A stretch of 61,688 nt of DNA, filler included, from Globobulimina sp. (lineage: Eukaryota), in the NCBI GenBank assembly GCA_003354225.1. It is 21 parts of 21 records of this genome, joined end to end, with 100 filler letters (N's around TTAATTAATTAA, not from the genome) between each part and the next. Parts side by side here need not be neighbours in the genome. Positions count along the whole stretch, not along the records: positions 35,322 to 38,163 come from PIVH01004661.1; 20 more parts are not named here. One strand, 5' to 3'. A program made the translations under genes and the position numbers. Of this stretch, positions 1 to 61,688 are shown in pieces (positions within the stretch are counted from its first letter, which is position 1; every line of letters starts with the position of its first letter). The notes under the pieces were generated by a model that worked only from the letters and a program-made list of their open reading frames with translations, did not search any database and was not told the origin of the DNA.

Positions 1-2845
1 CGGTTCAATGCCGCGATAAAAGGCCTGAACCTGGTAATTATAAAAAGACTCTTTGGTCAATACAATATCCAACAACTGCACAAAACACAGCGCATTCCCG
101 GCCTCCCTCAACAACGTAAACACGCCTTCGCGCAACGCCGGGTACGATTTGATGTATTTCAACATCATATCGTAATAACCATACACGCCCAACACGCCAT
201 AATAGGCAGACTGCAACTTCATAGGGTCCAAATTCTTCAATATCTCCTCCACGTACGGCGAGATGTCGCGGATGATGATATGCGCCACGGTCTTCACCGT
301 CTCGTCCACCAACAACGGCATGCTGTCCACCCCCATCATCTCCACAATCGAGGTCAAGTGCTCGATGCCGAAAAAGCCGCGCGTCACTTTGAACCGCTGC
401 AACAAGATGGACGTAAAGCGGCTGCCCCACAAATACAACGAGTCGATCTTCTTGAACGATTTGGGCCGCTCCAAGCTCACAAAGCGCCGCGTCAGCCCAT
501 TGAAGATGTAATTCCTCAGCAAATTGGTGAAGATCTGGTTGTACGTCGTCAAGAATAAGCGCCCCCGGTAGGAGCCCACCGTGGTATCCTCGTTGATTTC
601 TTGCAAGATATTCTCGAACGAGTCCAAACCGGCCAAGTGGTCGTGCAACATCTCGCAAGTTAGCCGCAATGTGCGCAGTAAATGCCAGATCTCCATACAC
701 GAAGTGATCACAGACGACTCGTACCGATTGATGATCACTTCCACGTTCTCGCGGATGAACAGATTCAACTGCTCCGTTAACAGCGACTCGATATCGATGA
801 CGCGGCCCAAAATCTGCACGTGTTTCTGCGAGAAGATGCTGTTATATCTGGCCAAGGGAAGCTTCATTTGAGAGCCTAACTTTTTGACTCCCAAGCCGCG
901 CTTCAATTTGTTGTAGAAATTCTTGTCCAACAGCACCAAACTCGCCTTGTTCTTGTAGTAATCGAAGATCTTTCGGTACAGCGTGAACATCAACTGATCG
1001 AACACCAAATTCACCTCAGCCTCCACCTCGTCGAAGAGATGTTGCTGTCGGAAGCCCGCCGGCGATAAGGCGTACGCTGCGCAGTCGTTGTAGATGGACA
1101 GCGGGAAAAACACATTGGGCGCCAACGACGGCGTAGACATCGCGAAGTCCGTCAACATCCACGGGAGGCTCATCGCGATGGGGAACTGTATACAGTCCGT
1201 CATATTCAAATAGAATTCGCGGTACCATAGACACGATAAGTCGGCCGATTTGTTGATGGTTTTGTGGTAATTGCTGACATAGTCGCATTTGCCTAATACG
1301 GTGTATAAGTCGGTAAACGTTTTCACATCGGACTTGCTGAAAAAATTGCTGCCCATAAAGCCACTTTGCTGCCACGGCACGTCGGGCGAAACCACGTAAA
1401 ATAAAATGCGCCGCAACAACAATAACTGTGTGCGCGTCGGATAGACGCTGCGATGATTAATGCTCTGTTGCTTGAGATTGCGGTTGATTTCCTTGTCGCG
1501 TTTGCCGCGATAGTCGGCGCGCAATATCTTCTCATTGTTGTTGTCGGCCACAATCAACCTCGCGGTTAATAGCAACGACTCTAATAATTCCTTCTTTTTC
1601 TTGAAGGCTTTGTTCAAGGGCCACACTATGGTTTTATGCACAAATTCTTGCAATGCGCAGTGCATATAACTGGCAGTCACGACTCGCATTCGCGTCTCTG
1701 ACGACAACAACAAATTACTTAAGCCTTTGATCAAGCCGATGATTTCCACCATGGCATATTTCAACTCATTGCTGTAATTGAAGCGTGTGATCTGTTCATA
1801 CACTTTGTTTTTACCGCCGCGCCCACCCAATATCAAATACTCTGACTCTGAGGTGGGATTATTCGATTTGTACACGAATTGTTCGCGCAATTTGGCGGTC
1901 CAATCCCCGATCAATTTCATGCCACGAATCACTAACTCGAAGCCGCGACCGTATAATTTGAGATCGATGCGACCGCTCTTCTCCTTCTCATTGGCGCGCA
2001 AATTATGCAAAAAGGTGCCAAACGCAGTGGTGAAAGAGATGTAATGGTCCTGTATGGTTTGCCGCCACCGGATCAAATCGTACGTTTTCTCGTGCTTTTT
2101 GTCCATCCATTGGCTGCTGTATTGCATGTCTTTGGTGAAGTTGTCGCAAATGGACAAGGCCATGGGGACCGTAGTATGGATGTCCATGAACACGGGCAAA
2201 ATGGGTAATTTCTTGCATACGTCGCGGATTTTGTTAATATTTTTGAAGTATTTGGACTTGAACACGTTCAAACCGCTCGAAGCGTCGTCGGTGAGATACA
2301 AACTGGCCAATATGCAGCGATAAAGCATGTGTTTCTCCTCCGACACGATGTATTTGTGCGTTTTGATCATATCCATGCATTGGTTGATGATGATGGAGAA
2401 TAATTCCTCGCGGTGGGGGATGGCGCCGACGTCCTGTTTCAACTGCCATAATATGATATTGTTTGGATGCGTTGGGTCGTTTAAGAAGTTGTGGACTTCG
2501 GTGATCTGAGCCATTAACTCGCCGCTGTTGGATAGGATGGATCGGATGAAGGAGAAGGCGCGTTTATAGCGACTGAAGTCGTTCTTAGTTTGGCCCTTCA
2601 TATCTTTTAAGAGATTTAAAACGAAAAACTTGTCAATTACGCGGATCAAAATAGTGATATGATCGCGCCAAAGAGGCTCTTTTTTCTCTAAGGGGAAGAT
2701 CAATAATCGGATGTTTTTGATGAAGGATTTGACGAATCGCGCCACGAACTCCATCAAGCCTTTGATTTTGTTGATGTGCGGCGTGATGATGTCGAAGACG
2801 GTTTTGTAGAGCTTCTTCTTCTCTGCGTCCTCGAAGTCGGCAGGG
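1..2845 (-). CDS. CYFIP: CYFIP/Sra1/PIR121 (WAVE regulatory complex subunit), internal fragment, open at both contig ends
   Basis: Not in the ORF track. Manual minus-strand translation gives LLKDMKGQTKNDFSRYKRAFSFIR, RYNSIFSQKHVQILGRVIDIESLL and VFTLLREAGNALCF, matching CYFIP motifs LKNMKCSVKNDHSAYKRA and RHVQLLGRSIDL. Confidence 0.92.
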
Positions 2846-2945
2846 NNNNNNNNNNNNNNNNNNNNNNNNNNNNNNNNNNNNNNNNNNNNTTAATTAATTA
2901 ANNNNNNNNNNNNNNNNNNNNNNNNNNNNNNNNNNNNNNNNNNNN
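2846..2945. other. Artificial contig-joining spacer (44 N + TTAATTAATTAA + 44 N); first of 20 in the window
   Basis: The same 100-nt block with stops in all six frames recurs about every 2.94 kb; contig lengths fall from 2845 to 2840. Confidence 0.99.
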
Positions 2946-5482
2946 TCATTAAAAAGAAATGAAATAGAAACAATATGCAATGACAACTATTCAGACTTTA
3001 TCTCATCCATTGATGAATTATTAGGCGTACAGTTATCTGTAAATGAACTACAAAACAAAATACATTCATTAAATGGGGAGATCCAAGCAAATGGCAACAA
3101 TCTACAACAAAAAATCTCCAATCTATTAATACTAAAACAAACCCGAAGGAATATGGACATTACCATCAACAAATTGAATCGTTTAAAATATATATTATTA
3201 TTAATGGATAAAATCCGTGATATGATGCATAAAAAAAAATATATCTCAGCCCTCAAAAACTTAAATCAATTGACATCGCATCATTTGATACAATTACAGG
3301 AATACTCCGTCACGCGGAAAATATGGGATTCTGTGCATATGACAATGGAGAAGATCACAAAACAGGTCGACAGCAATTTTGATGAATGGATACATGGCAT
3401 AAATAAACAGGGGAATACATTAGGTATTACTCACTCGATTAACATACAAACAAAACTCACTGCAATACTCACAAAAAATAATCAGGAAAATTAGCGTTCG
3501 AACAAACGAAAAAATACATTCAAAGCCTTCAAGAAAAAGAAGAAAATGACAATGAAAACGAACAAAACGACGTTAAATTGTTTGGCTTATTTATCACTGA
3601 CGAAAACGAAGAAAAATCCAAAGCCATTATCTCCACCGCTGAGCAAGAAAAGGATATCGATTTTGGAGGAACATTGTTTGAGAAAATCGAAAATCTGGAC
3701 TTCAACGCCATTTATCAATGCATTCACATCCATGAAACTTTGGGCAGCATCGACCAATTTGTGACTCGTTACAGCGACTTACGCAAAAGAACGCGATTAA
3801 AGATCTTGAACGAAAGCTTAATTCGCATGGACGGCGACGGCAAAAAGAAGAAAAAGCGGCGAAAATCGAAGAATAAAACTATTATAAACAATGATTTTTT
3901 CTACAATTTGTGCGGTTTTTATGTGATTCAACATGCGGTGTCCAGCCGCTATCAGCAGCTCATGAATACGGAGCAGGTTCAGACAGAATGGGATCAAAGC
4001 TGTAAAACGTTGACTTTGCGCATCAAAACAGAGTTGTTGTCCACTTGCAAGTTACCGAACGAATTGATATCGATTAAAAATAATGTGTTTATATTAAGCA
4101 AAGCGATGACGAATTATGATTTCAATCGAAATCATATCATCTCTTTCTTGGAAGAGCTACGCATTCAATTTGAGCAGCGCTTAATTGTGGTGTTGGGGAA
4201 AAATGTGAAAAGCATATTATTGAAGGACAAATTCCTTCCCTTCACAGTGCAGAATATCCAGGATTTTGAGTGTATCGAGGCGTATAACTTAGATGTGGCG
4301 ATACAGGATAACAACGAGCGGAGTCCACAGCATATGGGCACTATCCGCGAGGAGGATGATGATAAGGACGATATATATTACGAAGAGTCGGACTTCCCCA
4401 AAGTTGTACCGTTTTCTGTGTCTGTGCCGATGATCTGTGGCTATTTGGACGATTTTATTACATATTATGAGAATTATAGTCAATATTTATCTGATATGGG
4501 TCCTCATATTCGACAGTCGGTGGAATCTGCGATAAAAAACGTGATTTGTCAGCAGCTGAGACACGTGATCTCGGCGAGTAAGCACGAAAACGTGCAGCAA
4601 GCTCAAGTTGGCAATGCGCAGCAAGCACAAATAAGTAATACTGCAGCTGGCATGAACAGGAAGTTAGAGATTGGAGAGTTAGCGCAGTTAGCTGTGAATG
4701 CAGCGTATTTGGAAAAAAGTTGCAAGTTTTTCGAGCGGGAGTTGGCCACTGAAGATCAGATCAATTATACGGATAACAATAAGAAGGATAAGTTAGTGAT
4801 TGTGGATGATGGATCGGAGCTGATTCAGATACCAAAGATGCACGAAGCCCGCGATGCGTTGAAGTCGGTGATGAGTCAATGTGTGGACGCTTTGTTTGAG
4901 AGATTGGGTATTTGTGTGGAGAATATATTGAATAAATACATGTGTAGAATCAATTGGTGTGCTGACAAAATCAACAATAATATCCATGAATGGGTGTATA
5001 AATTGCTTGAGTTTCTGGACAATGTGTTGAAGAATAAAATAAAATATTTGCCGGAACAGTATCGGGATTCGGCGTATTTTATCACAATGGTTCGGATTAA
5101 GCAGTTTATAACGACGTTGTTTACGCAGAGAGAGATGGATAACGGCATTAAGAGATGGAATATTATCTCAATGTATAATTTTAATTTGGATATAACTCGG
5201 TTGGAGACGTATTCGCGACAGACTTTGGTGCCGGATTTGTATCAGATCTTTAAGTCATTGCGGCAGTTATTGGATTTGCTGTTGTCTGGGAAGGAGATTT
5301 TGTTGTATTTGAATGAGGAAATTCGAATGGAAAAGTATGGCATTGTGGAGACGCATCACGTCCGAACTATGTTGGAAAAATATAAGACATTGGGATTCCT
5401 GAATAAATTACCAAAACATATTAAGGATTTAAATAAGAAGACTGTACAACAAATGTTGAAAAATTTAAAGGATATGGATTGA
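2946..5482 (+). CDS. EXOC6: Exocyst subunit Sec15/EXOC6, 5'-partial; intron 3424-3485
   Basis: IETICNDNYSDFISSIDELL and DFNAIYQCIHIHETLG motifs. Removing the GT-AG intron joins the ORFs as NTLG|KLAFEQT. Confidence 0.88.
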
Positions 5483-6010
5483 GTAAGTTGCGTTTTTTTA
5501 TAATTCACTTGTTTGTTTTGTCATTTTGGATGCTTTCGGTTTAATTTTGATTAATTTCCACGTTGTTTATAACGTTTTTCGTTTTTGCTGGACCGGAAAG
5601 TTGCATTTTAAAACCCTGGCTGACTTTACTGTATTTTCTGAAATTTTCAGACAGTTAACTAACAATGGCGCGACAGGCGCGTCCACTCCCATTCGCTCAA
5701 AAAATGAAATTGATGAGAAACCAGCAACATTACGAGAAGAAACCAGCAACATATACGGTCATATGACAACGCTATACTGTCAGATAGAAANNNNNNNNNN
5801 NNNNNNNNNNNNNNNNNNNNNNNNNNNNNNNNNNTTAATTAATTAANNNNNNNNNNNNNNNNNNNNNNNNNNNNNNNNNNNNNNNNNNNNAACAGACACA
5901 AAATACCGAAAAGCTGCACGTCGCATTGTGTACATGTTTCCGCTTCTCCGAAAATAATAATAATAATACAAAACAAACTTTAAGTTTATAATTCTCAAAC
6001 ACTTCAAATC

Positions 6011-14722: not shown

Positions 14723-17566
14723 AAATCGCTGATAATACCTTCAAATAATATTAAATCTTGAGATAAAAACTTGGGTACATTGGCATCACACAAAGCACGC
14801 AGTAATATTAACTCTTCATCTTTATTTGGAAACTTCTTCTTCAAATTGCCAGCTTGCACAATCACCGATTTTACTGCTCGCATACCATAATCATAGTGAT
14901 CTTGCGACGATAACTGCTCTGAGCATAAAGTAAAGGTCGCCACCATTTTCTTAGATAACGGCTCAGCTCTATTAAAACCATACGAATATAACATGATCTC
15001 CGCAATCAATGCGTAATCGGGCACCATCATCGCAACGGGGCGGAATAACGCGACTAAGTTGTCAGGCAATTCTGTACGCCCCGCATAGCCTGGATTCATT
15101 GTAATAAATGTGCAGCAGGTTGGATTTAATGAGATCTCCGTTTCTTCGAAAATAAAGGATTTCTTTTTAGCTTTGATCGCGTTCCATATCGATGATATTT
15201 GCTGGGCCACAACGGACAAAACCTCAATGTCAATACGATTAAACTCATCAAAACAGGCCCAGGCTCCGCTCATAGCTAAGCCTTTGAAAAACTTGGCCAT
15301 CGCTAAATGGTCCAAACTATCCGAACAGTTAAACACCACACATTGTTTAGCAACATTTTTCGCCAAATCCTTGACTGTTTCAGTCTTACCAGTCCCGGCT
15401 GGCCCTGCTGGTGCACCGCCTAAATGTAATTGCAATGCGCCCATTAACGTCATATAACAGCGCTCAGTCAGCGGTGTGATCACTAATCGGAATGAGTTGC
15501 CTTGATATTCATAGCCATATGGAAAGGCTGCTTGCACCATTTTTACAATGATCACATCTTCTTTGCTTAATACGGAGGCTTCTTCCTCCTCCTTTTCCTC
15601 TTTCGAAGGGGTTTCTAAGTAGTATCTCAATTGGGAGACCCACATGAAATCATTGATGGAATCTACATTCTCGCCGACCATGTTTTTAACTGTATTTAAA
15701 TTATGCACATCCAATACAATTAAAGCACCCACATTTATTCGCACCAATTTGTCTAATTTACCTCGAACCATTTCAACCGTTTTATCCATATCAGCTTGCA
15801 TTCGCTCTCGGTATTTGCAAATACCTTTATTGCCTTCACTAAGTAACGCATGCTCCACTTCCTTAGTCCAGGCCACCTGCGACATGGTTAGGACACATTG
15901 ACCGTAGGTCCGCTTGACCCATTCTGTCCGCTTGGTGGATTTATCAAAATAATCTCTATATGACTTGTTTAATTGCGTTTGCAACGACATTTGCATCATA
16001 TTCTCAACCTGTTCTAACCAGCACTCAACCTGTGATTGGGTGGGATCTATGGCCTCATTAAAGGGGAATTCTTCGCCGGAGGTGGAATACATGGCAGTGA
16101 TTTGCAAATTGTCATCGAATTTTAGTTTTTTTATCGACTCAAAACATTTTTTAATGTGCGGTTGTACGGCTTTTACATCTTTGGTTTGCGATAATATTTG
16201 CAATAATTCATCGTCAGATAAGAAATAAAACCTTGCAAAGGCAACACGTTTTGTATTCAAATAATCCGATAATGCTTTCTGTACTTGATCTAAAACGCGA
16301 GTGGCATCTCTAAATTTTAATAGCAACGCATCATTATCGGCAAATATCAAGACATTTGCATTTTTTTTACAATTTTCCATCGTTTGCCTCCAAAATCTGT
16401 CCACACCGTTAAATTTCTTGCCTTCCACAGGTAATTGTTTCATAATATCTGCAGAATCGAATATAGGTTGTAAGTGTAACCAATTCCGTTGCACCATTAA
16501 CCATTCATCGATCACCTCCGATATTAATGATAATTTTGCGTCCCAACATTTTATTCGATCTTCGAATGGTCCCTTAAAAGCACTGAATTGCATAGCTTGC
16601 GTAGTCACGCGATGCTCATCCAATTGCTGCATAATGTCATCCACTTCTAATAAGCGATACGTTTTAGTCTTTTTGTATGGATCCACTGTAAACCGTACCC
16701 CTTTCCATTCATCTTCCATTTTATCCAAAGCTTTTTCAATTTGGAATTCCTTGGCGGCTTTCTCGCCTTCTTTGATAATAATAGTTATATTTTCTTTACA
16801 ATCCAATTCTATGTCTAATGCTTTCTGCAAATTGAAATCTTTATCATTAAATACATCCAATTCAATATATAATTTATTGGATAATGTGTTCCAATGTCTA
16901 TCCCTCATTCCTTCATTGGCCAAACTAGTAATAATTGGCATTTGTGGTTTAAATCTCTCAATTTTAGCAAATATATCTTGTGCTACACCGCTGACCCCGG
17001 TGTTATTTTTAATATGCTGCGAACGCAAACATTTATTGACAGATCGTCGATAAACTTCGACATCTTTCTCAATTTTATAGGGATCAATGGACAAAAATGA
17101 TTCATTCATACATTTATAATAGGTTTTATTCCATGAATCAGCACTGGACCATAACGATAAAAATGGATCAAATTTCTTTTGTTCTTGTCCGATCTCTTTG
17201 TACTCAGTTAATTCCACTTCAAAAGCGGCCTCTTTATTATTAAAAACAACCGCTTCTGCTTGTAAATGTTGTAATTTTTGATGCAAATTCCTGGCTTTAA
17301 TGGCAATTTTGGTGGTTTGGGTGACATCCGTTAATTGATTAAATTCGTCAATTTCCTGTTTTGCATCTTCAAAATCAGCCGAAAACTGAGCTTGTTGTTC
17401 TTTTAATTGTTGATAATATTTTTTCTTATCATCGGTCATATTTGTATTCACTTTCAATATTTCATCATTAATTGTTTTGGCACGGCCAAAGGTTTGCCAT
17501 TTTAAGCGGAAATCATTGGCATCTAAGTTATGATTAAATTCTTCCAATAAATCAAAATATTCTATG
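14723..17566 (-). CDS. Axonemal dynein heavy chain (inner-arm type), linker + AAA1 fragment
   Basis: RLVITPLTERCY, GPAGTGKTETVKDL, CFDEFNRI, MNPGYAGRTELPDN and LSSQDHYDYGMRAVKSV. Confidence 0.97.
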
Positions 17567-18084: not shown

Positions 18085-18225
18085 GGACTGATAAATTTGC
18101 ATTGTGTGCAAGGATAATAATTATACTGTTCGATATTTATAATTTTGATAATATCCAACACCTTTAAATTGCAAAACTTTTTTTGAAGTGATCTGGTTAT
18201 CATTTGTCAGCATAAATGTATAATT

Positions 18226-20217
18226 ATGCAATTGCGCATGCTACGATTATTCTACATATCAATTGCTACGAAAACGACAACCACAGCAAGCAACGTAGCG
18301 AATAGCGCGCGCGCTGCACGACTCATAAAAGATATCGATAAAACTAATAAGCAAACAAATAATGGACAAAAGAATGAAACTAATGTTGAAAAAGCATTTG
18401 AAATCTATAATAAAATTGATGGAATCAGAAATCATTTTGCAATAAATGCATTCATATCAGTTTGTTTGCATTTTAATTGCAGTGACAAAGTTCTGTTGAT
18501 TTGGAATGATCTGAAACAACAAAATGATATTTCATATGTATTACTATTAAAATGTTGTACCTATTCAAATGCGTTTGATACTAATCATTTAACACAAATT
18601 ATGGAATGGATTAAATATATAAATTATGAATTTAAGACAGAAAATGATTTGAAAATGTATTCAATTTGTGTTTCAAAGTTAATTGCAAATAAATGTGAAA
18701 CTAATAAAGAATTAAAATATATTCATTCGTTGATTAGTAATAATAATAATAATATTTACATTAAAACTGCATTAATAAATGGTTATGGCCGATTTGGTAA
18801 TATGGCAGATGCACAAAAAGTATTTGATTCAGTCAGTGATGATAAAAAAGATGTTGTTATTATTGGAGCAATGATGAAAAGTTTAATGCAGAATCGATTT
18901 AATACACAAGTTCTAACCATTTATAATCAATTTAATTCATTACATAATGACATATTACATTTAATTGCCATTCAAACCTGTGTTAATATGAATGATTTCC
19001 ATAAAGGAGAATTTATAATTTATAATTTGGAAAGATATCGATCGATATCATTGAATGTAATGAATATAAAGCTTAAAACAACGTTGATCGATTTTTATGG
19101 GCATTTTGGATGTATTGAAGAAGCAAAACAGGTCTTTAATTCCATCGGAATTGATGCATTAAATACAGTTTGCATCAATGCAATGATAAAGTGTTTGGTG
19201 AATAATAAATATAATCAGCAAGCATTGATATTTTATGATAAATACCCTCTGCACAATGACATTACAAATTTATTTGCCATCAAAGCGTGCATAAATAATA
19301 ATAGTTTTGAGAAAGGACTGGATATTATTAATATTAATCAGTGCCGTGATGAAAGTACAAGTATTGCATTAAAAACAACATTGATTGCATTTTATGGCCA
19401 TTTTAATGATATCAGCAGTGCTATGAAAATATTTGATTCCATCAGTAACGAAAATAAAACAATCGTAACAGTGACTGAAATGATGCATACTTATTGTAAT
19501 TGTGAAATGTATGAAGAATGTATTCAATTATTTAATAATTATAATTCTAAATATAATTCTAAATTGGTCCCAGATGTTATGTATTATGCAAACATATTAC
19601 GAGCATGTACTCAGTCTATGTCATATGATATAGGTTTACAAATACATAATGATTTAAAGCAAAGCAAGCAATCATTCTTAAATGATTGCATTATTCAGGT
19701 GAGTTTAATTAATTTTTATGGGAAATGTGGTAAATTGGTAGCATGTAAACAATTGTTTGATGCAATAAATGAAAATAAGAAAGACACGGCGATTTGCAAT
19801 GCAATGATAAATTGTTTTGGGCTGAATGGTGATTCAAAGAATAGCAAGAAAATATATGATGAATTGCAATGTGTGCCGGATCGAAACACATTTATATATT
19901 TAATAAATGCATTCAATCATGATTTATATTGCGGTGATTTGAAAGATGTAATCAAAATTTGGCAAAATGAAATAATTGATATGAATATAAAATATGATTC
20001 TTATTTAGTTACGACTTTAATTGATTGTTTATTGAGAAGAGGTGATTTGATTAAGGCTTACGATTTGATTGAGGAATATGAGCATAATAAATTGTGTAAT
20101 CATACAAACGATGAGTTTATGTGGATTGCATTGTTAACTGCTTGCAGAAAATATGAAAACAATGAATTAACTCAAGTCGTCTATAAAGAAATGAAAACAA
20201 AAAATTTTAGCAATTGA
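18226..20217 (+). CDS. PLS-class-like pentatricopeptide repeat protein ending in an S2/E1-like motif; possible organellar targeting peptide
   Basis: Repeats TALINGYGRFGNMADAQKVFD, TTLIDFYGHFGCIEEAKQVFN, SLINFYGKCGKLVACKQLFD; C-terminal LIDCLLRRGDLIKAYDLI...MWIALLTACRKY. Confidence 0.88.
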   Translation: MQLRMLRLFYISIATKTTTTASNVANSARAARLIKDIDKTNKQTNNGQKNETNVEKAFEIYNKIDGIRNHFAINAFISVCLHFNCSDKVLLIWNDLKQQNDISYVLLLKCCTYSNAFDTNHLTQIMEWIKYINYEFKTENDLKMYSICVSKLIANKCETNKELKYIHSLISNNNNNIYIKTALINGYGRFGNMADAQKVFDSVSDDKKDVVIIGAMMKSLMQNRFNTQVLTIYNQFNSLHNDILHLIAIQTCVNMNDFHKGEFIIYNLERYRSISLNVMNIKLKTTLIDFYGHFGCIEEAKQVFNSIGIDALNTVCINAMIKCLVNNKYNQQALIFYDKYPLHNDITNLFAIKACINNNSFEKGLDIININQCRDESTSIALKTTLIAFYGHFNDISSAMKIFDSISNENKTIVTVTEMMHTYCNCEMYEECIQLFNNYNSKYNSKLVPDVMYYANILRACTQSMSYDIGLQIHNDLKQSKQSFLNDCIIQVSLINFYGKCGKLVACKQLFDAINENKKDTAICNAMINCFGLNGDSKNSKKIYDELQCVPDRNTFIYLINAFNHDLYCGDLKDVIKIWQNEIIDMNIKYDSYLVTTLIDCLLRRGDLIKAYDLIEEYEHNKLCNHTNDEFMWIALLTACRKYENNELTQVVYKEMKTKNFSN

Positions 20218-21714: not shown

Positions 21715-21903
21715 TTTTGTTGGTTCACTTCAAACAAACATTTTCGTCAATTTTAAGATCACACCATAGTCCAAACGCTGTTGAATACATAGTCCTATCA
21801 TACATTACACATAACAAGTTAGAAATATTCTCTTTAATCTGATACATACAGAATTTATCACAATGTTTCTGTTATATAAAAAAAACAAAAAAAAGAGAGT
21901 GAT

Positions 21904-23085
21904 ATGATTATCTTAGTTTGTATCGGCTTGGCATCGTTGATATCGTTTGCGGTCAGCTTAGAGAATCCGGATTGTCAACGGATTCGGCAGCCATGGCACG
22001 CTCAAACAGATGAAGAGAAGAACTTATTCGTGTCTGGCTTATTAGAATTGCGTAAAAGAGGGCAAGGTTCGGTGGAATCTGACGAATTTATCAATATCGC
22101 GTCGGTTTTTGATGATTCTACAAAAGTGCCCAAAGCAGGGAGCTCGGCCTACTTATTCTGGCATGGTTACCTTGTCTGGGAGTTGGAGTCTCGTATTCGA
22201 AATCTCGATGGGAAATGGAAATGTTTCGGTATGCCATATTGGGATTTTGCGCAAGAAGCGGGCCGGGAACATAATGCGGTGATATTTGGGCGTGCCATAG
22301 CCCGCGAGATTGGCGGTAATGGCGACCCGGATAACCATTGGGCAGTAAATGAGTGGTCGTGGGACGTGGCGGTGCGAGAATATTGGGTACCAAATGAGTG
22401 CAGTTCGCCCACTGACAAATATCCGAAATGCTCTTTAAAACGGTCCTTACGCACTGCCGACGAGAAATGGTCAATGCCGACTGGAGAAAGCATCGGCAAA
22501 TTATTTCAAAAAAAGAAATTTTCAGATTTCGCGCCGGCGTATTCTAAATTGAGCGCATCAGCCATTAATTTAATCGACGCGCATATCGGCGAGAAAGCGC
22601 TCAAAAAACATAATTATGCGTACGATCCGTTGTGGTGGCTGTTTCATAGTAGCATCCAATTACATTTTGCGTTGTGGCAAGACTGCAATGGCTATTTGGA
22701 TATCGATATGAAAGAATTAGAGAAACATTCGGATGCGTTTAGCACAGTGAGTGACGGCATCGGTTTGGATGATGCCTTTGTGTTTGAGGGCGCCTTAAAA
22801 GGCAAGAAATGGAGTTATATCAATTCAAATGATGTGACCGTGCGTGGAATGTATTGGATGCCGTCTTGGAATATCAGATATGACTTAGATAACGGAGAGG
22901 GTTTTTGGACGCTATCTGGTGTCGGCTCTCAATGCAAAGAGAAACTAAATACCGAGTATTTTATTGTGGAGCGCTTAGATATGAGTTCCGAGCATTGGTC
23001 TACGCATTGGATGTTTGATGTGGTTGTTGATGGCCTCGCTGTGGTTTTAGTGGTTGGCTTTATGAAATATTCAAAATTAATTTAA
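21904..23085 (+). CDS. Tyrosinase-fold membrane-anchored protein with incomplete copper sites
   Basis: Signal peptide; YLFWHGYLVWELESRIR, MPYWDF and YDPLWWLFHS motifs; C-terminal hydrophobic segment. Confidence 0.8.
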   Translation: MIILVCIGLASLISFAVSLENPDCQRIRQPWHAQTDEEKNLFVSGLLELRKRGQGSVESDEFINIASVFDDSTKVPKAGSSAYLFWHGYLVWELESRIRNLDGKWKCFGMPYWDFAQEAGREHNAVIFGRAIAREIGGNGDPDNHWAVNEWSWDVAVREYWVPNECSSPTDKYPKCSLKRSLRTADEKWSMPTGESIGKLFQKKKFSDFAPAYSKLSASAINLIDAHIGEKALKKHNYAYDPLWWLFHSSIQLHFALWQDCNGYLDIDMKELEKHSDAFSTVSDGIGLDDAFVFEGALKGKKWSYINSNDVTVRGMYWMPSWNIRYDLDNGEGFWTLSGVGSQCKEKLNTEYFIVERLDMSSEHWSTHWMFDVVVDGLAVVLVVGFMKYSKLI

Positions 23086-35321: not shown

Positions 35322-36155
35322 CACCGCTTTGTTGTTTTCTTTCGGCGAAACCCGAATTCTCAGCGGTCGTCAAATCGAATTTGCCCTGTGTGTCCTATAC
35401 AAAATACAGTAATATACACACAAATCGAAAAAATTGTACAATAAACGAACTTACTCTGTAAATGAAGTAACCGAAATCGTTTCGGTCCTTGAACTCCTTG
35501 CTGCTTTTGAACACATTTTCCAAGTAAGACAAGTATGGGTACAAGTCGTGAGAGCCTGTTATTTGGGTACTGTTGCCCAATGTTACGACCACGCGAGAAA
35601 AAAGACTGCCACCTGAAACGAATGTCACATTTCAAGATCGACAAACAAGACACTTTTTTAAGTACATACCCAAATTCGCGGCCGGAGCGGCGTTCGTAGC
35701 TCCCAGAGGTGTGCCGTCTCCGTTCAACACTTGACAATGTATCACGAGTCTGATGGAAGAAGGGTCCAAAAATCTTTCCGAATCTCCGCTGAAATTTCGA
35801 TTTTAAATCAGAATATTTTTTGCCGCCCTGTGCGGTGGAGTGGGCCCAAGAGGGTGTTGTCCCGAATACATAAAACAAGTACAAATAATAAAATACTTAC
35901 TGTATAATGAACACTGTTTCACCCCCTTCTTGCAGTGTACCTATAAGCAATTTGGTCAGTTTTCGACTTTAAAAAACTTCACCCTTCTCTTCTTTACTTA
36001 CCCTGCGGCAAAATTCTCTCGGTAGTATAGTTTTGAAACTGCACTTGCAGTCCTTTTCTGTTGAACAAATCGACTTCCGGCAAATTAACGACAGGTTGAA
36101 CATCTACAGAAGTACTAGTGCCGGCTATATGAGTTTTTCTTTTTTTGGGAGGCAT
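35322..36155 (-). CDS. Polinton major capsid protein (double jelly-roll), N-terminal part. Exons 36155-36002, 35940-35901, 35788-35670, 35612-35455, 35394-35322
   Basis: Spliced product MPPKKRK...PEVDLFNRKGLQVQFQNYTTERILPQG|TLQEGGETVFIIH|GDSERFLDPSSIRLVIHCQVLNGDGT...APAANLG|GSLFSRVVVTLG...LYPYLSYLENVF...YR|DTQGKFD...NSGFAERK follows the Polinton MCP pattern ELDLF...IEF.I.G....YLD...PVN...SLFSQV...YPYRAY.E...YKDTAG..D...N.GF..R. Confidence 0.88.
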
Positions 36156-36178
36156 TTTTTTGACGAATGATAAATAAA

Positions 36179-36604
36179 TTATTTAAATTTGCGCAAAAGT
36201 TTTACAACTTGAGAAACAAGTTTCGTATTATTAATAGGTTTTCGTTTTCGACCGACTGTTTTTCCGCCGGTTCGCTTCTTCAAATTGCGTTTTTGGCCAC
36301 CTTTCACGACCTTTTTTCGTCCGGCTTTTTTTGATTGTTTTTGACCACCCGTTTTCTTATTTTTCTTCTTTTTGACGACTTTTTTGCGACGAAAACGTGG
36401 GAATTTGATAGTTTTCAACGCGCGTTCACGTCGTTTTCTTGGAGGTTTGACTCTGGCCAAAGGTCCAGCCGAAACGGGACTTTCGAAACCGTGATGATAT
36501 TGAAACAAGGGATTTTTTATTTTCTCAGAAGGGTTACGAGACAAAATGTTTTCAAATTTTTTCACAAAATTACTCTGAACAGCACCACCGACGCAAGAAG
36601 ACAT
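36179..36604 (-). CDS. Highly basic Lys/Arg-rich protein, candidate virion DNA-condensing core protein
   Basis: Lies between the minor and major capsid genes; K/R-rich with repeated xGG motifs. Confidence 0.6.
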   Translation of the reverse strand: MSSCVGGAVQSNFVKKFENILSRNPSEKIKNPLFQYHHGFESPVSAGPLARVKPPRKRRERALKTIKFPRFRRKKVVKKKKNKKTGGQKQSKKAGRKKVVKGGQKRNLKKRTGGKTVGRKRKPINNTKLVSQVVKLLRKFK

Positions 36605-36646
36605 TAGTATCAATAATAATAAATAAACAACAGTACATAACTTTTT

Positions 36647-37438
36647 TTACACAAACAACGACAGAGGTTGACGTTTAATCAATAATTCGATGACGCAAGA
36701 GGCGTGATTCATAAATTTTGGCAAAGTTTTAAAGTCGGAGCAGACCACTTGAAAGGTCACGTGACTAAAGCTGTCTGCGGCCACGAGCTTGGACCACCTT
36801 AATGGTGAGTCATAGGTGAAGGTAATTTTTCGGCCGAAAAGGGTCTGCTCGCTATTAAAATCGATAATGTTTAAAATTGGCAAGGGTCCAGCGGGAGTGG
36901 GACATCGATTAACCAAATCGCAAAGCAAGTACATGGGGGTGTAAAACAAATACATGTCGGGCAATCTTTCGGCCGTCGAAGATCTATCGTATACTATATT
37001 ATGATCAAAACCGAGCAATGCGGCTAATTTGGGGGAAAATTTGACCTCGGTCTCTGGTGTTAATTCCATTTCCACTCTTCTGGCCTGATTTTCTTCGGGA
37101 ATTGTCAGTCTGATATCATGAGGCGCTTTTTCGTTTATATTGGTCAACAAGCAATTGATAACATCGCACTGTTCTGTATCGCAAGTAATTTGATCATCAA
37201 AATCTTCGTCTCCGTTCAAATTGTATTGCAAATAACAGTCTTCGTCTACAGTAGGAAAGGACAAGTCCATACATACACTTCGGGCAGTGATCAAATAATT
37301 GTAACCAGGTTTCACAAAAGTACAAGCCGAGTCAAGATAAGCGGTAAAAGAGGCGTTAGTTCGCCACTTTTCCATGTCCTTTTCGTTGCTAACAAAAAGA
37401 GTAAAACTGTCAGAATCATTCGCCATCAGTGCTGTCAT
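36647..37438 (-). CDS. Polinton minor capsid protein (penton, single jelly-roll)
   Basis: SFTLFVSN...NASFTAYL, LAALLGF, MYLLCDLV...PILNII, FSHVTFQV and IELLIKR match the Polinton penton pattern; overlaps the integrase stop. Confidence 0.75.
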   Translation of the reverse strand: MTALMANDSDSFTLFVSNEKDMEKWRTNASFTAYLDSACTFVKPGYNYLITARSVCMDLSFPTVDEDCYLQYNLNGDEDFDDQITCDTEQCDVINCLLTNINEKAPHDIRLTIPEENQARRVEMELTPETEVKFSPKLAALLGFDHNIVYDRSSTAERLPDMYLFYTPMYLLCDLVNRCPTPAGPLPILNIIDFNSEQTLFGRKITFTYDSPLRWSKLVAADSFSHVTFQVVCSDFKTLPKFMNHASCVIELLIKRQPLSLFV

Positions 37439-38133
37439 CGGTGTTCAATCTTTCGGGAAACGAGGATTTCAATTTCAAATATTCACTCTCGTTCAACCAA
37501 CGAGTATAGTTACGATTATGTCCGACAAAATTGACCAAATATTCGTTTTGACCAGACTTCGATTGACGTTTGTCTAGGGTACGATCGACGATTCTCCAAT
37601 TTTCGAAATCTGGTTCGGCTTCGAGCAAATTTTCGGGTCTAAAGTATCCCTGAACAGTTCGACCGTCGGAATCGGTCAATCTATAAGTGGGTGGATAAGT
37701 GTCCCTTATTTCGGATACAATAAACGTTTCTTGACTGAACCCCGGCTTGCTTCTTTTCAAAAAACTGTTTTTGTCCGGAATACTAATTCTCACAAAGGTG
37801 GAAACGGGAAATAGGGGTCGATTAAGGTCCTTTGTTTTTTGATCAAAAAATTTGGAATATTTTCTTCGGTAAACGAGTCCCGCGTTCTCCAATTGTCCGC
37901 TTTCGGTAGGATGCAATTCGGTCAATATAGAAGGGGTAGAGTTGACACTGTTCACGATGCGTGACAGCGCTTTGGACAGGTCCGGTTTTCTGTTCAGATA
38001 TGTCGAGTGGCGATTCAATTTGCCTCGAATCGTGGCGATACTCTTCTCGGCCAAGAAGCTCTTTTGATCGGGGTTTTCGGTTGTCTGATGTTTGCCGATC
38101 GGCAAAGTCTTGAACAGTTTGAATTCGTTTCCT
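37416..38133 (-). CDS. Polinton-type retroviral-like integrase, C-terminal part with chromodomain
   Basis: GNEF...KSFLAEKSIATIR (DDE Glu), VNSVNST, FVRIS...F.K...PGFSQETFIV...PPTYRLTD...GYF..ENL, and chromodomain YLVNFVGH...RW. Confidence 0.9.
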
Positions 38134-38263
38134 CTGAAATAAATGAATTTTAATTTTAAAAAANNNNNNNNNNNNNNNNNNNNNNNNNNNNNNNNNNNNN
38201 NNNNNNNTTAATTAATTAANNNNNNNNNNNNNNNNNNNNNNNNNNNNNNNNNNNNNNNNNNNN

Positions 38264-47086: not shown

Positions 47087-49338
47087 TTCTTACTAGTTTT
47101 CTGTCTATATCTCCCACTGAATTTCCTATGTCTATTCCTATGAAAATTCATTAATTCCTCGTACATCAAATGTCGAACCCCAAACAATGTATTGATTTTC
47201 GCCTCAAAGTCTCCCGATAAATCAAATTTCTCTGAACACATATCCAACTGCTGCTCATCCTGCTGGCTCGCAAACTCATTGCCTATCTCTTGTATTTGTT
47301 GCTGCGTCTTCCGAATCTCTCTCATTTTCTTTACATGCGACTGAACCGTCGCATTATATAACTCTGACAACCATTCACTTTGCAAACAGCTTTGCACCGA
47401 CACTCTTTGATGCGGATCCATGGATAGCATCACTTTGATCAATTTACGCGACGCATCGGTGGCAGTGGGGAATAATTGTTTGAACGGCTGACCCGGTTTC
47501 CTGTCAATGCCAGATACCCACCGCTTGGCATCAGGCGTCTTAATCCAATCTAAATTGCTCGGCGTCCCAAGATAATGAAATATTAATTTAAGTTGTTCGA
47601 TGTGGTTACTTCCCGGGAAAAACGGTTTACGCAAATATAACTCCGCTAAAATACACCCCACACTCCACACATCCACCAATTCGTCATATTGCCGCGAGGA
47701 ACACATGATTTCTGGCGCGCGATACCAGCGCGTCACCACATATTCAGTTAATTTGCCCTGTTCGTTTTCCTTCAATACGCCGCGCGCTAAGCCAAAATCA
47801 GTGATTTTTAATTTGCAATCACTGCCATTAATTAATATGTTTTCCGGTTTTAAGTCTCTGTGGATCACGCCGGCGGAATGGATGTATTTGAGACCGCGCA
47901 ACAGCTGAAATATAAAATATTGTTTGTGTTTCTCAGATAGGGACTGTTTGGAGCGGATAACGCGTGATAACGTAGTCTCCATTCGGGGCATAATAAGGTA
48001 CACTTCCTCAAAGTCTTCGCGTTCATCGTCATCGGGCGGGATGACTGAGATTAACGGCATCACATTTTCGTGGCGAAAGTGCATCATTAACTTCACTTCG
48101 CGTAATATGCGCTTGGCGTCACTCAATGCACTGAAGACACCTTTGTTTTTCTTGATGGCCACAACTTGATTGCTTCGCATATCGGTGGCCTCAATCACGA
48201 CGGCATACGCGCCTTTGCCCAAAATCTTGGTCGGTTTGTAATAGTCATAAATGACGAATTTCTCACCGTTCAATTTGTAGGTGATTTTCTTTTTGGGTTT
48301 ACGTTTTTTGATGGCTGGTTTCGATGGTTTGGCAATGGGCGCATTTTCAAAAATATCCATCATTTTCTGTTTATGGTCGTCGTCGGTTTGGTCGTCACCG
48401 TCTTGCATAGTGCTTAGAATATGATTATGTGCATGATTTTTATTTAATTCTTCAATTTGTTTTTGGGTTTCAATCATTTCCATTCTTCGCCTGGCCTCTG
48501 CTTCTTTTTTTTGTTGTTGCCGTATTTTCTCGATATCTTTCATTGGAGCCATACTGTATCTCTTCCTGTTTCTTTTTTCGTTGTCGTTGTTGCTCTTTTT
48601 TTCATGAATACTGCCTCCTTTGTCATTGCTATTGTTGCAGTTGCTATTATCAGTGCTATTTTTGACAGGTTTTCCATTGATGAATTGACGGTTTTTTAAG
48701 CCGAATTTGTGTGAGTTTTGCAAATTCATAGCATCGCCCAGCGATCGACGATACGAGGGACCCCTTAGGTAATTACGTGTATTTTAGATTATATTTGTAG
48801 AACCTTTGTAGATTAACTTATTTTGTGTTTTATTGGTATAATTATTTAGTGCTTGTAAACGATTTTGAACTTTTGGATTATTATTTACAGCATGTTGATA
48901 TATCGATGGGTTATTGCTGTTTTTACCGTTAACATTTTGATGATTAATATAATTATTATTTGGTTCTATTGCTACTGGTCTTGGTGGTGTGGCTTTGATT
49001 TGTTGTGGTTGTGGCTGTGGCTTTGGTTTTGGTTTTGGTTGTTGGTTATTTGTATTATGATTGATATGGGTGGGGCTAAATATAGGTGGCTCAACGTCTT
49101 GTGATGAATCCGTAGGTACGGGATCTGTTGTTAATGACGAAAATTGTTCAGTTATAGGTGGTGATGATTGCTGGGTACGCGTATTATAACTATTATGGTT
49201 GCTGTTGCTGTGATGATCTTTATGAGAGAATATTTGTGTAAATTTTGTTTTTATTTTTTCTAATGATTTTGTTCTGGACCTTTTTAATTTAAATGATGCA
49301 GAAGAAGTTTGGTCGTGGATAACTTGATCAGTTGACAT
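47087..49338 (-). CDS. MAP kinase (TEY) with a long low-complexity N-terminal extension; intron 48764-48817; 3'-partial
   Basis: GKGAYAVV, VAIKK, HRDLKPEN, DFGLAR, LTEYVVTRWYRAPE. Confidence 0.95.
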
Positions 49339-51306: not shown

Positions 51307-52868
51307 ATGTCGCAAACACAAGAAAACGAGTCGCAACTATATGACTCTCAGGTATGAACGCAATATCCTCTATCCATCCCCACTCATTCTATCAATAAAA
51401 ATTCAAACACAAAAAAATGTAACACAAATAGTCTGATTTAGCATTTTTAGATTTCACGTCCAATCTATCATCTTCACAACCAACCACCCAAACTTTATGC
51501 GGCACCGAATCCCAAATCAATCCATCCCTCACTCAAACCCAAGACACCACCACCTCCGACAACACTGATTACAAATCGGGTTACAACCATGACAGTAACC
51601 TTACCCTCAACATGCACATCAAACCAATCCACCACAGCCACAGTCAAAGCCACAGCCACAGCAACAGCAACAACATCCCCCTCATCCATAGTCATCCCTC
51701 CATATCCAAATCCAAATTGCATAATCACAATAAACGCCTCGACTCTCAACAACAAGCAAACTCCGCGTCCACCCAAACCCAAAACGACTCCGCCTCTCAA
51801 TTGCCACTAATGGACGCACGTGCCTTCGACACGCAGTCTCAGACTCAGACCCAAGCCGCATATACCTCCCCTTCCCAGGCAGCGCAAAATCGCAATAAAA
51901 AAAGCAGCCAAATCCACTCTCAAAATACCGCCATCTCCAGCAAACAGTCCAAAAAAGCCAAAAATATAATAGACGACGACGACCTCGAATTAGAGTTCCA
52001 GCAATTTGATGATCAGGTTTTTATCCCTATCCTTGCACACAAAACAACAAAAAAAGATAAAATAACTGACACACAACACCCATGTAACCCCCCTCAGCAA
52101 TCGCGTCGTCTCCGCATCACCAACACCAATTACCTCGACTCGCAGACGCAGAGCCAAACTCAGACCCAAACCCAGAGCGAGACGCAAAGCTCGCGGCACA
52201 AATCCACCACCTCCGAGTCCAAAATGTCTGAATTAAAGGAAAACAACGCCTCCTTAGACCTCAACAACCCGAACCTGAAGGCCTACGACTTCCAGAACCT
52301 GCCCTCCCACGCCTGCAGCTACTGCGGCATCCACAGCACTTCGTGCGTGGTGCGCTGCGACATCTGCACCAAATGGTTCTGCAACGCGCGCACCAACAAC
52401 AGCGCCGGCTCGCACATCATCCACCACCTCGTCCGCAGCAAACACAAACGCGTGTCGCTGCACAGCGACTGTCCCATCGGCGAGACCAGCTTAGAATGCT
52501 ACAATTGCGGCACGCGCAACATCTTCCTGTTGGGCTTCGTGCCGGCGACCAGCGACGGCGTCGTGGTGCTGTTGTGCCGCAGCCAATGCCTCCACATCTC
52601 CAAATTGCGCGAAATGGAGTGGGACGGCGCCAGCTGGCAGCCCTTGATCCGCGACCGCGAGTTATTAGATTGGTTGGTGCAGTCCCCGCAGCCCATCGAA
52701 TTGATGCGTTCGCGGCAGATCTCTACGGAGCAAATGAACGGTTTGGAGGAGCATTGGAATCAGGTTTGGATAATTCTCCAATGTATGATGATGTACCATT
52801 TGACAGCGAGAAGAATCTTCTGATGTTGGCAGTGGTGTGCACCAATTTGACGAGAAGTCCGAGAGATC
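51307..52868 (+). CDS. UPF1: UPF1 (NMD helicase), N-terminus and CH domain, 3'-partial; introns 51352-51431, probably 52017-52097, and from 52764
   Basis: HACSYCGIH...KWFCN...SHIIHHLVRSKHKRVSLH...LECYNCGTRNIFLLGFVPA. Confidence 0.95.
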
Positions 52869-58748: not shown

Positions 58749-58994
58749 NNNNNNNNNNNNNNNNNNNNNNNNNNNNNNNNNNNNNNNNNNNNTTAATTAA
58801 TTAANNNNNNNNNNNNNNNNNNNNNNNNNNNNNNNNNNNNNNNNNNNNATAATATATTGGAAATATTTTTTGAAAAGAGCATAAAAAACAAAAAGTCAGG
58901 GTCTTATTTTTTTAAATATTTGAGAAAAAAAACTTTACTCTTTTCAAGTTGACTAAAAACGCTGGTTGCATCATGTGCTTTTGTTTATAATATT

Positions 58995-61688
58995 ATGTCT
59001 AAAAAAGCACTCTTAGATATTTGGTCTGTTCAATTTATCCCATTGGAACGTACTATATATACTCAAAGATCAATTTTTTTACAACAAGCTCTTGTAGATA
59101 GACCTCCTATATCCAAAATAGCTGAATTAGGCTACATCGACGACACTGCACAACTTTCTCGCATAATGGACACCGACAATCCAAACGAAACCAATGAAAC
59201 CAATGAAAGCAATGAAAGCAACGAAACAAATGAAACCAATGAAGCAAATGAAACAAATGAAGTAAATGAAGCAAATGAATCAAAAATAGAACTCGATGCT
59301 AATAACACTGAAAATATAAATGAAAATAGCAACAATGACAAACCACAAGAAAACAATGACCAACCACAAGAAAACAATACTAACGACGACCATAAACAAG
59401 AAGAAAATACAGAACAAAATACACAAGAAAGCAACACCAATGATACAGCACCAGAAAGCACACCGCCACAGAATACAAACACAGAGCTCGAGCTAGAAGT
59501 AGGCGATTACGTAGAATTAGCAGATGGCATTCGCGGCATCATACAGTTTATAGGCCCCACCGAGTTTGCAAAAGGAGAATTAGTGGGTTTACAAATGTTA
59601 ACCTACGACACCGACGGCGAAGATGGCACCAAAAACGACAAAACTTACTTTGAATGCAAGCCCGGCTACGCACATTGGACACGTACAGAGAAAATAAAAA
59701 CGCACTCAAAAACAGCACCTACGCCTCCACCGCAACAGTCTTCGTCGCCGCCACCGCAGGAACCTCAATCTTACGTAGAACGTTTCTCCTCCATCTCAGA
59801 CTGGAAGATCCCCACCGAATTATTGGAAGAGGCCAAGCGTTTGGACCAAGACTCTGACTCCGATGAGTTAATAGACACTCAACAGCATCCCGACAGCCTC
59901 GCCATCGCCGTCCGTATCGGTGACCGCGTCATCACCGTCAGTGGGCATACCGGCATCGTACGTTATATCGGCGTTGCTCATTTCAGCCATTCCCACGACA
60001 ACATCACCGATATCATCGGCATTGAATTAGACAAATGGACCGCGACGGGACATAATGGCACTGTCGAAGGGTATACATACTTTACCTGTATACAGGGCCG
60101 AGGTTATTTCATCACCGCCACGGGGATTGCGTCCAATTTGGGCGCCACTATGGCCAAACGACGCAAGTCCAGCATCCTAATGAACGCACACATGCTACCC
60201 AAGGATGTGTTGGCCGATATGAGTGACCTAAAAGCAGACGAACACAAGCTCGAAATGAGTAATATCAAGCGGCAAATTCAGAAGATTGAGAAAAAACTAC
60301 ATGAGATTTCCGTCCTGCAACAACAACAGAAACAGGGCGATGTATTAGACAGCGCTCAATTGACCAAAATCGACCGTAAGAAGCACTTAAAAGGGAAATT
60401 AGACACATTGACACAGTCATTGATGGACATCAACCCCACGCCGCGGGTACAAGGCATCAAGGCGCCGCTGCCGCAGATCAACTTCAATGTGGGCGATGTG
60501 GTGAAATTAGAACGCGGCAAGACCGGCGTGGTGAAGTTCGTGGGGGAGACCGAGTTCGCCAGCGGCGAGGTGATTGGCTTGGAATTGGACACTTGGACAC
60601 CGGCGGGACACAATGGCAGTGTGCGGGGAAAGTGCTACTTCGAAGCGCAGGAAGGTAGGGGGTATTTTACGCGGAGGTCCAACATATTGAACGTGGTGTT
60701 GCCGTTGGTGGCGCCGCTCAGGAAACGGAGGATGAGCATCAAGTATAAGTTGAATCCCTTGTACGTGGGCGATAGGGTACGGATGCAGACCGATGATACA
60801 CGCAATGGGCGTGCCGGCGTAGTGCGCTACATCGGATACCCCAGTTTCACGGATGGAGAGGTGGTGGGATTGGAGTTGGATGAGTGGTGCATCAATGCGC
60901 ACAATGGCTTTGTGGACGGCGTGCAGGTGTTTGTGTGCAGTACGCCGGGCAGAGGCATCTTTTTGCGACGCGATGAGGTGGAGAAGTACGACCCATTGAA
61001 GGAGAAATTGAAGGAAATCATCAAGAACTTGAAGTTGGGCGACACGGTGTTGCTCAGTAACAATCGCAAGGGACATGTCAAGTACATCGGGCCCGTCACG
61101 GGCTACGATGAGATGATTGGCGTCGAGTTGGAAGCGTGGAGCCCGCAGGCAAAGGATGGACGGTATGATTTGTTGAGAAAAAAGCAGCAGAAAACCACAC
61201 AAAATCACTTTATAATTATAAAATGTATACAAACCTATATAGTTACGATGGATTTCGTTACTTTACGGCGCCCGACGGACGCGGCATATTTATTAAACGG
61301 TCGACGATTATGGACGTGATACCGTTGGAGGCCATCCCTCAGATTGAAGACGACAAATACGACGAAGAGGACACTGGCACTGAGACCGGCGACGACAAAC
61401 AAGACAGCACCGTGACGCCGGTGGTGGGCAACCGGGTGAAATTAAGTAAGGGCCGATTCGGTATCATCCACAGCATCGACGAGATGGATGACGGCTCGTT
61501 GGAGTATGCCATTGATATTTCGCAGTTGATCTCGCGTACACTGTTAGGCGGGAAGCACACCGTCGATATCGCGCATAAACGGCAACATAGCATGGCCGGG
61601 GCCTATAAAAAGGCGCCGGATAAACAGATACAGTCCGCGCGGCAGAGCGGCTTATTAGACATCGAAGACTTGCACGGCGGCAAGATAT
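58995..61688 (+). CDS. Protein with at least five CAP-Gly domains; intron 61163-61242; 3'-partial
   Basis: Five VGD.V....G.V.(F/Y).G...F..G..(I/V)G.ELD......(N/D)G....YF....G.G.F units; splicing completes the fifth. Confidence 0.9.
59183..59280 (+). repeat. 9-bp coding tandem repeat (AAYGAAnnn; NET/NES/NEA), about 11 copies
   Basis: aacgaaaccaatgaaaccaatgaaagcaatgaaagc... Confidence 0.85.

Follow-up and report, generated by a model that had tools for sequence, protein, structure and literature searches.

The window analysed in this work is a 61,688-base stretch taken from the Globobulimina sp. assembly GCA_003354225.1, in which 21 unrelated contigs of 2840-2845 base pairs (bp) each are joined by N44-TTAATTAATTAA-N44 linkers, as was seen from a map of the N runs. 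One of these contigs, PIVH01004661.1 (window 35322-38163), probably carries a piece of a Polinton/Maverick-type element, in which the last exon of a chromodomain-bearing integrase gene is followed by a putative penton gene, a gene for a small basic protein and the first third of a major capsid gene, the last of which is interrupted by four intron-like segments (Table 1). Both ends of the contig fall inside genes; since the window contigs are unrelated to each other, the sequence beyond 35322-38163 provides no genomic context for the element.

The preliminary description of this locus, made from the sequence alone, had proposed four GT-AG introns in the capsid gene, and their coordinates, lengths and donors were all found to be correct on the minus strand when they were checked against the sequence and by script. 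It had also announced a stop-free spliced frame of about 180 codons with intron phases of 1, 2, 1 and 0; these phases were confirmed, and the spliced frame was found to run through 181 codons with zero stops, whereas the unspliced frame meets a stop at codon 54. All four introns (4/4) possess U2-type GT...AG ends with the extended donor consensus and acceptors rich in pyrimidines, and they are poorer in G+C (GC content 0.334) than the exons (0.46). The motif GTAAGT is present three times on the minus strand of the element contig, and each copy coincides with one of the donors proposed; elsewhere in the window, it was counted 7 times over both strands of the remaining 20 contigs. An Rfam search over the whole window returned nothing, and there was thus no sign of self-splicing introns. 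Removal of the four segments restores one open frame that is colinear with uninterrupted homologues.

Table 1. Position of the features on the element contig and of proteins encoded by other contigs of the window (window coordinates; nt, nucleotides; aa, amino acids; ORF, open reading frame)
Feature	Position	Strand	Remarks
Element-fragment contig	35322..38163	-	2842 bp, GC 0.406; every gene on the minus strand; N linkers on both sides
Capsid exon 1	36002..36155	-	154 nt; begins with the ATG at 36155; basic N-terminus MPPKKRK; phase 1 at the 3′ end
Intron 1	35941..36001	-	61 nt; donor GTAAGT, acceptor TTATAG; phase 1; CTGAC at -19; GC 0.328
Capsid exon 2	35901..35940	-	40 nt
Intron 2	35789..35900	-	112 nt; donor GTAAGT, acceptor TTTCAG; phase 2; CTGAT at -23
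Capsid exon 3	35670..35788	-	119 nt
Intron 3	35613..35669	-	57 nt; donor GTATGT, acceptor TTTCAG; phase 1; multiple of 3, in-frame stop
Capsid exon 4	35455..35612	-	158 nt (52 aa); most conserved part
Intron 4	35395..35454	-	60 nt; donor GTAAGT, acceptor GTATAG; phase 0; multiple of 3, in-frame stop
Capsid exon 5	35322..35394	-	73 nt; open at the contig end, no stop; about 2/3 of the gene off the contig
Basic-protein ORF	36182..36604	-	141 codons; C-terminal half rich in Lys/Arg; stop 23 nt ahead of the capsid ATG
Candidate minor capsid (penton) ORF	36650..37438	-	263 codons; between integrase and basic ORF; start overlaps the integrase end by 23 nt
Integrase last exon	37419..38133	-	from GNEF of the catalytic core through an SH3-like part to a C-terminal chromodomain
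Probable fifth intron, 3′ end	38134..38163	-	30 nt; AT-rich; acceptor TTTCAG; cut by the contig end
Sec15	3482..5479	+	
Dynein heavy chain	14725..17565	-	
PPR protein	18187..20214	+	
Tyrosinase	21880..23082	+	
Protein kinase	47089..48783	-	
UPF1	51432..52820	+	
CAP-Gly protein	58953..61316	+	

To homologues that run without interruption, the intron borders could be fitted precisely. In a word-indexed protein search, exon 4 was found to match one protein, P0001 (123 aa), with 79% identity. P0001 is unbroken across the exon 3/4 and exon 4/5 junctions, and two further homologues, P0003 and P0007, are unbroken across all four intron sites. When the three proteins were compared with the contig by tblastn, gaps of exactly 19 and 20 codons were observed facing introns 3 and 4. 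Exon 1 was matched by residues 1-54 of P0003 (expectation value, E, 4e-11) and by residues 1-45 of P0007 (E 1.5e-8), and in both proteins 13 residues lie between the exon-1 and the exon-3 matches, which is exon 2 plus its split codons. Residues 1-180 of the spliced product aligned with residues 1-183 of P0003 at 45.9% identity with 3 gaps (E 3.6e-54), and the product aligned with P0007 at 40% identity (E 9e-45); no alignment gap was located at any of the four junctions. The basic stretch at the N-terminus of the spliced product is present in P0003 and P0007 in a weaker form.

The junctions were also submitted to a control in which each intron was varied over all GT..AG pairs within 30 nt and scored. 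This resulted in 61 combinations (18, 21, 12 and 10 for introns 1-4), corresponding to 57 true alternatives, and 19 of the 61 were stop-free. For every intron, the junction of the preliminary description obtained the top score, with a margin of 8-12 bits over the alternatives. Colinearity with the homologues and the junction scores together make it very unlikely that the four segments are insertions from pseudogene decay, with GT starts and AG ends that arose by chance. Decay would agree with the lack of transcript evidence and with introns 3 and 4 being multiples of 3 without a strict branch-point motif, but it is difficult to reconcile with the extended donors (GTAAGT three times and GTATGT once), with the YAG acceptors and with segments that are AT-richer than the exons in a window where GTAAGT is otherwise rare. 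The exons, moreover, contain neither stop nor frameshift, the exact junctions beat all 57 alternatives, and the colinearity that is restored by removal of the segments shows zero gaps at the four junctions.

The family to which the capsid belongs was collected with phmmer, using P0001 as the query against 1.84 billion representatives; 184 proteins were obtained at E<=1e-3, 8 at <=1e-10 and only one, the query itself, at <=1e-30. From this search 151 proteins were kept, and the 56 with a length of 400-500 aa, which are full length and were presumably called as single ORFs, were aligned as A1 and used as the family profile. Against this profile the spliced product scored 124.1 bits (E 3.3e-37, Z=1000) in a single domain which spanned all four junctions and covered profile positions 13-167 of 436. 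The single exons scored 37.9 bits (exon 4), 23.9 bits (exon 3), 12.0 and 1.6 bits, and exon 2 gave no match.

To the preliminary description, a structure of the spliced protein was expected to be a double jelly roll. With the family member P0009, which was modelled in place of the window protein using alignment A1 in AlphaFold2, a double jelly roll with capsid matches was indeed obtained (predicted local distance difference test, pLDDT, 92.7; predicted template modelling score, pTM, 0.89). In a Foldseek search of BFVD, the top match of this model was an uncharacterised protein of Cotesia sesamiae Mombasa bracovirus (E 4e-26, 21% identity), the second was adomavirus LO7, and virophage and giant-virus capsids followed. 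In the PDB, Sputnik 3j26_A was the best match (6e-16), followed by PBCV-1 Vp54, an iridovirus and the mavirus capsid 6g43. When placed on the P0009 model, capsid introns 1, 2 and 4 mapped to loops and intron 3 to a short helix. Among the 56 members of A1, Pfam recognised DJR-like_dom in 5 (best 1.1e-5) and Capsid_N in 3, together with three unrelated single matches. A PDB sequence-profile search with A1 returned adenovirus hexon only, at the non-significant E values of 0.1 and 0.59. Pfam found only sub-threshold chromodomain matches among the ORFs and exons of the contig itself, and no match was given by blastn against a phage collection. The modelled fold identifies the family as a double jelly-roll major capsid, of which the contig encodes the N-terminal third. 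As a separate observation, the 30 most conserved residues of the N-terminal capsid region were matched in 9 separate stretches of P0017 (961 aa), which looks like a tandem repeat of a capsid fragment.

The element context of the family came from a motif scan of IMG/VR which gave 23 loci, one of which (L022) encodes a capsid family member. L022 is a contig of 12,321 bp whose ends form terminal inverted repeats of 135 nt (96% complementary), and it contains two additional inverted blocks. Its genes follow each other as a 1157-aa ORF, a packaging ATPase of the IVa2/A32 type, two small ORFs, an rve-Chromo integrase, a 255-aa ORF, a 129-aa ORF, the capsid and a Peptidase_C5-type protease, with Pfam matches to Adeno_IVa2 (4.5e-6), Pox_A32 (2e-5), Peptidase_C5 (1.4e-4) and, for the integrase, rve (2e-10) and Chromo (2e-6). 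The L022 capsid scored 600 bits against the family profile and showed 29.4% identity to the spliced product (E 3e-16). The order of integrase, middle ORF, small ORF and capsid is the same in L022 and in the window contig. The capsid of L022, however, is a single intronless ORF of 472-473 aa, whereas on the window contig four introns fall within the first 181 codons, and the integrase gene is apparently split too. As far as the contig reaches, the earlier identification of the gene as a Polinton capsid is upheld by the profile score, the fold of the relative and the L022 context; its remark that such capsid genes are usually single ORFs fits the 56 full-length proteins among the 151 and passages in four papers.

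Within L022, the 1157-aa ORF (2085-5555, plus strand) occupies the polymerase position, and neither Pfam nor a PDB sequence search gave it a significant match. A weak similarity to Endonuclease_7 (HNH-like) at residues 371-418 (E 0.012) was all that was obtained, and it recalls the HNH-bearing pPolB2 that is described for nematode and oomycete Polintons in passages of Jeong et al. (2023).

The integrase gene of the window contig also appears to be split, as an AT-rich stretch ending in TTTCAG lies at its 5′ side and similarity begins right after it. The integrase fragment aligned with the L022 integrase at 29% identity over 201 aa (E 7e-14). This similarity starts straight after TTTCAG, where G-N-E-F faces the G-Q-E-F of the catalytic core, and translation of the preceding stretch gives ten residues unrelated to the L022 integrase. 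The region of G-x-E-F and the catalytic E could be aligned by eye, and both catalytic D residues would sit upstream of the contig end. A fifth intron in the integrase gene is probable from this pattern, and it would split the conserved D-x-G-x-E-F core motif. Pfam gave no direct rve match to the fragment, and its chromodomain is weak (Pfam E 0.03-0.1; PDB E 0.0075 and above, 16 chains). In the Atlas, the fragment was placed with Chromo and Chromo+rve clusters (recognition 3104), and nothing was retrieved with it by the word-indexed protein search.

From the structure of the introns, the colinear alignment with continuous homologues, the family fold and the setting of the capsid gene in the relative L022, we consider the contig to be a fragment of a Polinton/Maverick-type (adintovirus-like) element whose capsid coding sequence is cut by four short U2-type GT-AG introns, and whose integrase gene is apparently cut as well, with a probability of about 0.8. 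A number of observations weigh against this interpretation. The capsid gene on the contig is not a full-length gene, as it corresponds to profile positions 13-167 of 436, and the modelled homologue P0009 is 29.6% identical to the spliced product. Introns 3 and 4 have no strict CTRAY/YTRAY branch motif. The candidate penton has no Pfam match, and AlphaFold2 on the single sequence gave a model of too low confidence for use (pLDDT 31.9). The 2.8-kb contig shows neither polymerase, ATPase nor protease genes, and no terminal repeats or target-site duplication; with the polymerase, ATPase, protease and ends lying off the contig, Polinton membership rests on two or three genes and a relative. The GC content (0.406) and the intron density of the contig are unlike those of most other contigs, which have long uninterrupted ORFs. 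Finally, the contig was found in no RNA run, and the sole run that holds it, X1 (0.83 of sampled words), is not recorded as RNA; splicing is thus something that we infer, in the same way as nuclear import, mobility and host.

If the contig does derive from such an intron-bearing element, the element would be transcribed in the nucleus and its capsid pre-mRNA would be spliced by the host spliceosome to yield the open frame. The basic N-terminus MPPKKRK, if read as a nuclear localisation signal, may then bring the capsid protein back to the nucleus. The introns would have been gained inside this sub-lineage of an otherwise intronless capsid family.

Among the forms that such an element could take, a living Polinton/Maverick sub-lineage whose core virion and integrase genes hold spliceosomal introns of their own, rapidly gained and lost, is a tentative proposal which we regard as possible but doubtful. 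The closest relatives in the database are ORF scraps of 74-123 aa, annotated as hypothetical or left without a name, from metagenome or run assemblies only, and the position of their introns was read from protein ends and not from DNA. On the family profile, the introns of the window lie at positions 40, 53, 94 and 145. P0001, P0005, P0006 and P0008 lose similarity at profile 158-162, where short unrelated tails start with G-K or G-I; as a lead, such tails are what an unspliced G|GTAAG or G|GTAT donor would encode. Unlike these four proteins, the window sequence and P0003 continue there uninterrupted. P0004 stops two residues past the intron-4 site with V-R, as GTAAGA would read, and F-Y-R in P0001 and F-D-R in P0002 stand just before the exon-3 match, which fits a TTTTATAG-type acceptor at the intron-2 site. 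Relatives with 56-79% identity thus read seem to share intron sites 2 and 4, to lack site 3 (most of them also 4) and to have an extra site near profile ~160. These truncation patterns hint at a diversifying lineage rather than at a long-resident copy. Searches for related loci with A3, P0003, P0027 and P0010 in metagenome, viral and genome collections found no relative. Up to the Q-I-T motif, P0002 and P0001 agree at 89% identity; beyond it, P0002 reads as if the same sequence had slipped by one frame, and either decay of this copy or an error in assembly is suggested.

Contigs from a sequencing run gave evidence of more than one copy. Three runs were examined and only X1 gave pieces; these cover introns 1 and 2 as DNA, and no intron-less joined form was present among them. 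The depth of X1 over the contig is low, and a loose end runs on past 35324. Some X1 pieces were only ~87% identical to 36499-36693 and 37022-37195, in the basic and 263-aa ORFs (25 and 27 differences in ~200 nt), with small insertions near 36621-36636 and with frames that are open in the parts seen. These pieces point to a second, diverged copy or strain of the element in the same sample. In the 263-aa ORF, the variants of X1 affect 6 codons synonymously and 10 non-synonymously, which is too few to show selection.

These data also bear on a long-resident, domesticated or fossil copy, that is, an old Polinton insertion which turned into host DNA, gained host introns and is no longer mobile or infectious. 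A density of four introns per 544 coding nt is typical of resident genes in intron-rich hosts, and the low depth in the one holding run and a 2.8-kb contig that shows no terminal repeats, polymerase or packaging genes would suit such a copy. We regard it nevertheless as unlikely, because the layout is compact and virus-like, with an ORF overlap of 23 nt and 23 nt from the stop of the basic ORF to the capsid ATG, and because all four genes of the contig are open. Synteny with the intact L022, bounded by its terminal inverted repeats, and the second copy at ~87% identity in the same run, also open over the stretches seen, argue in the same direction, and the seemingly partly different intron places of the relatives fit a diversifying lineage better.

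Splicing is common in nuclear double-stranded DNA (dsDNA) viruses, and the contig could belong to an exogenous, free adintovirus-like genome that uses host splicing for its late genes, instead of to an integrated transposon. The closest relatives are known only from metagenome or run assemblies, and L022, whose terminal repeats are complete, is catalogued among viral contigs; both facts would be in keeping with a free virus. On the other hand, an integrase with a chromodomain is suggestive of insertion into chromosomes, the presence of diverged copies in one sample would be expected at least equally of multi-copy genomic elements, and no feature of the contig separates free from integrated DNA. 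A free genome is considered quite improbable.

As to the position of this element among known systems, Polinton/Maverick-type elements with this capsid family are known, and what our data support as new is a capsid coding sequence that carries several spliceosomal-type introns. In passages of Barreat and Katzourakis (2021), the ORFs of intact vertebrate Mavericks are stated to be free of introns, which these authors find to agree with Kapitonov and Jurka (2006), and interruptions are handled as decay. Passages of a preprint by Widen et al. (2022) describe the core genes of Caenorhabditis Mavericks as intronless and cargo genes as having introns, and in sections of Bellas et al. (2023) and Chase et al. 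(2022) ORF-only gene calling is justified by endogenous viruses lacking introns. The words intron, exon and splic- do not occur in Krupovic, Bamford and Koonin (2014). In an incomplete literature search, no published case came up in which several spliceosomal introns divide the coding sequence of a Polinton capsid.

A close parallel is provided by the dinoflagellate Maverick/Polinton-like proviruses with introners, for which passages of Gozashti et al. (2025) describe spliceosomal-type introns inside integrated capsid-encoding elements, as is the case here. Those introners form repeated transposon-derived families, whereas the introns of the window are mutually dissimilar, 57-112 nt long and equipped with strong GTAAGT donors. 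An introner origin was rejected within the window, where the four introns share only chance matches of 7-10 nt with each other and with the other 20 contigs. Adenoviruses and adomaviruses are nuclear dsDNA viruses with double jelly-roll capsids that depend on the host spliceosome. Their late splicing joins leaders to intact capsid ORFs and is not known to operate on a capsid coding sequence cut into small exons, and it differs in this from the window contig, where the coding sequence itself is so divided.

In surveys of endogenous polinton-like viruses, genes are commonly predicted with prokaryotic or plain ORF finders, the stated reason being that viral insertions have no introns, and the finding goes against this working assumption of virus mining. 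With exons of 40-158 nt, a capsid gene would escape ORF-only pipelines or be taken by them for a fossil; that such pipelines would miss a split capsid is suggested by the closest database relatives, which appear only as scraps of 74-123 aa. Introns in the capsid and integrase genes would bind expression of the element to the nucleus and the spliceosome, and they would offer a handle on the host of the element and on its length of residence. They bear on whether virus-like transposons move introns between genomes, and there is a hint in the finding that a lineage of virus-like transposons has gained and lost introns. Should a living intron-bearing sub-lineage exist, it would be dependent on the host nucleus and spliceosome, could possibly ferry introns between hosts, and would have been systematically overlooked by ORF-based virus mining.

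The two ORFs between the integrase and capsid genes (263 and 141 aa) are both uninterrupted, unlike the capsid gene and, apparently, the integrase gene on either side. The 263-aa ORF was similar to its positional counterpart in L022, the 255-aa ORF (E 1e-5, with 23% identity over 112 aa). In an Atlas feature search it was placed with viral clusters, with a Sputnik V18/19 cluster at rank 6 (recognition 2149, which is below the 2300 mark); 26% of the members of this cluster carry PF21507. No near homologue was found for it by the word-indexed protein search and no family by Pfam; its product is a candidate minor capsid (penton) protein. The 141-codon ORF had no Pfam match and no significant similarity to the L022 ORF at the same position (E 0.62). 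That ORF of L022, of 129 aa, has a basic tail and sits at the same place; by position and composition only, the product of the 141-codon ORF may possibly be a DNA-condensing core protein.

Long ORFs without interruption, coding for cellular eukaryotic proteins, are present on other contigs of the window (Table 1), and the dynein heavy chain ORF (947 aa) occupies one entire contig. The assembly's main organism seems to be rich in AT and poor in introns, in contrast to the element contig. Given this contrast in GC and intron density, either the intron density of the element contrasts sharply with that of its host, or the contig may derive from another organism in the sample. Look-alikes of the integrase in the Atlas came chiefly from nematodes, arthropods and rotifers, which can be taken as a lead to the host and not as a taxonomy. 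The 21 contigs of the window are apparently ordered by size, and their GC content ranges from 0.275 to 0.476.

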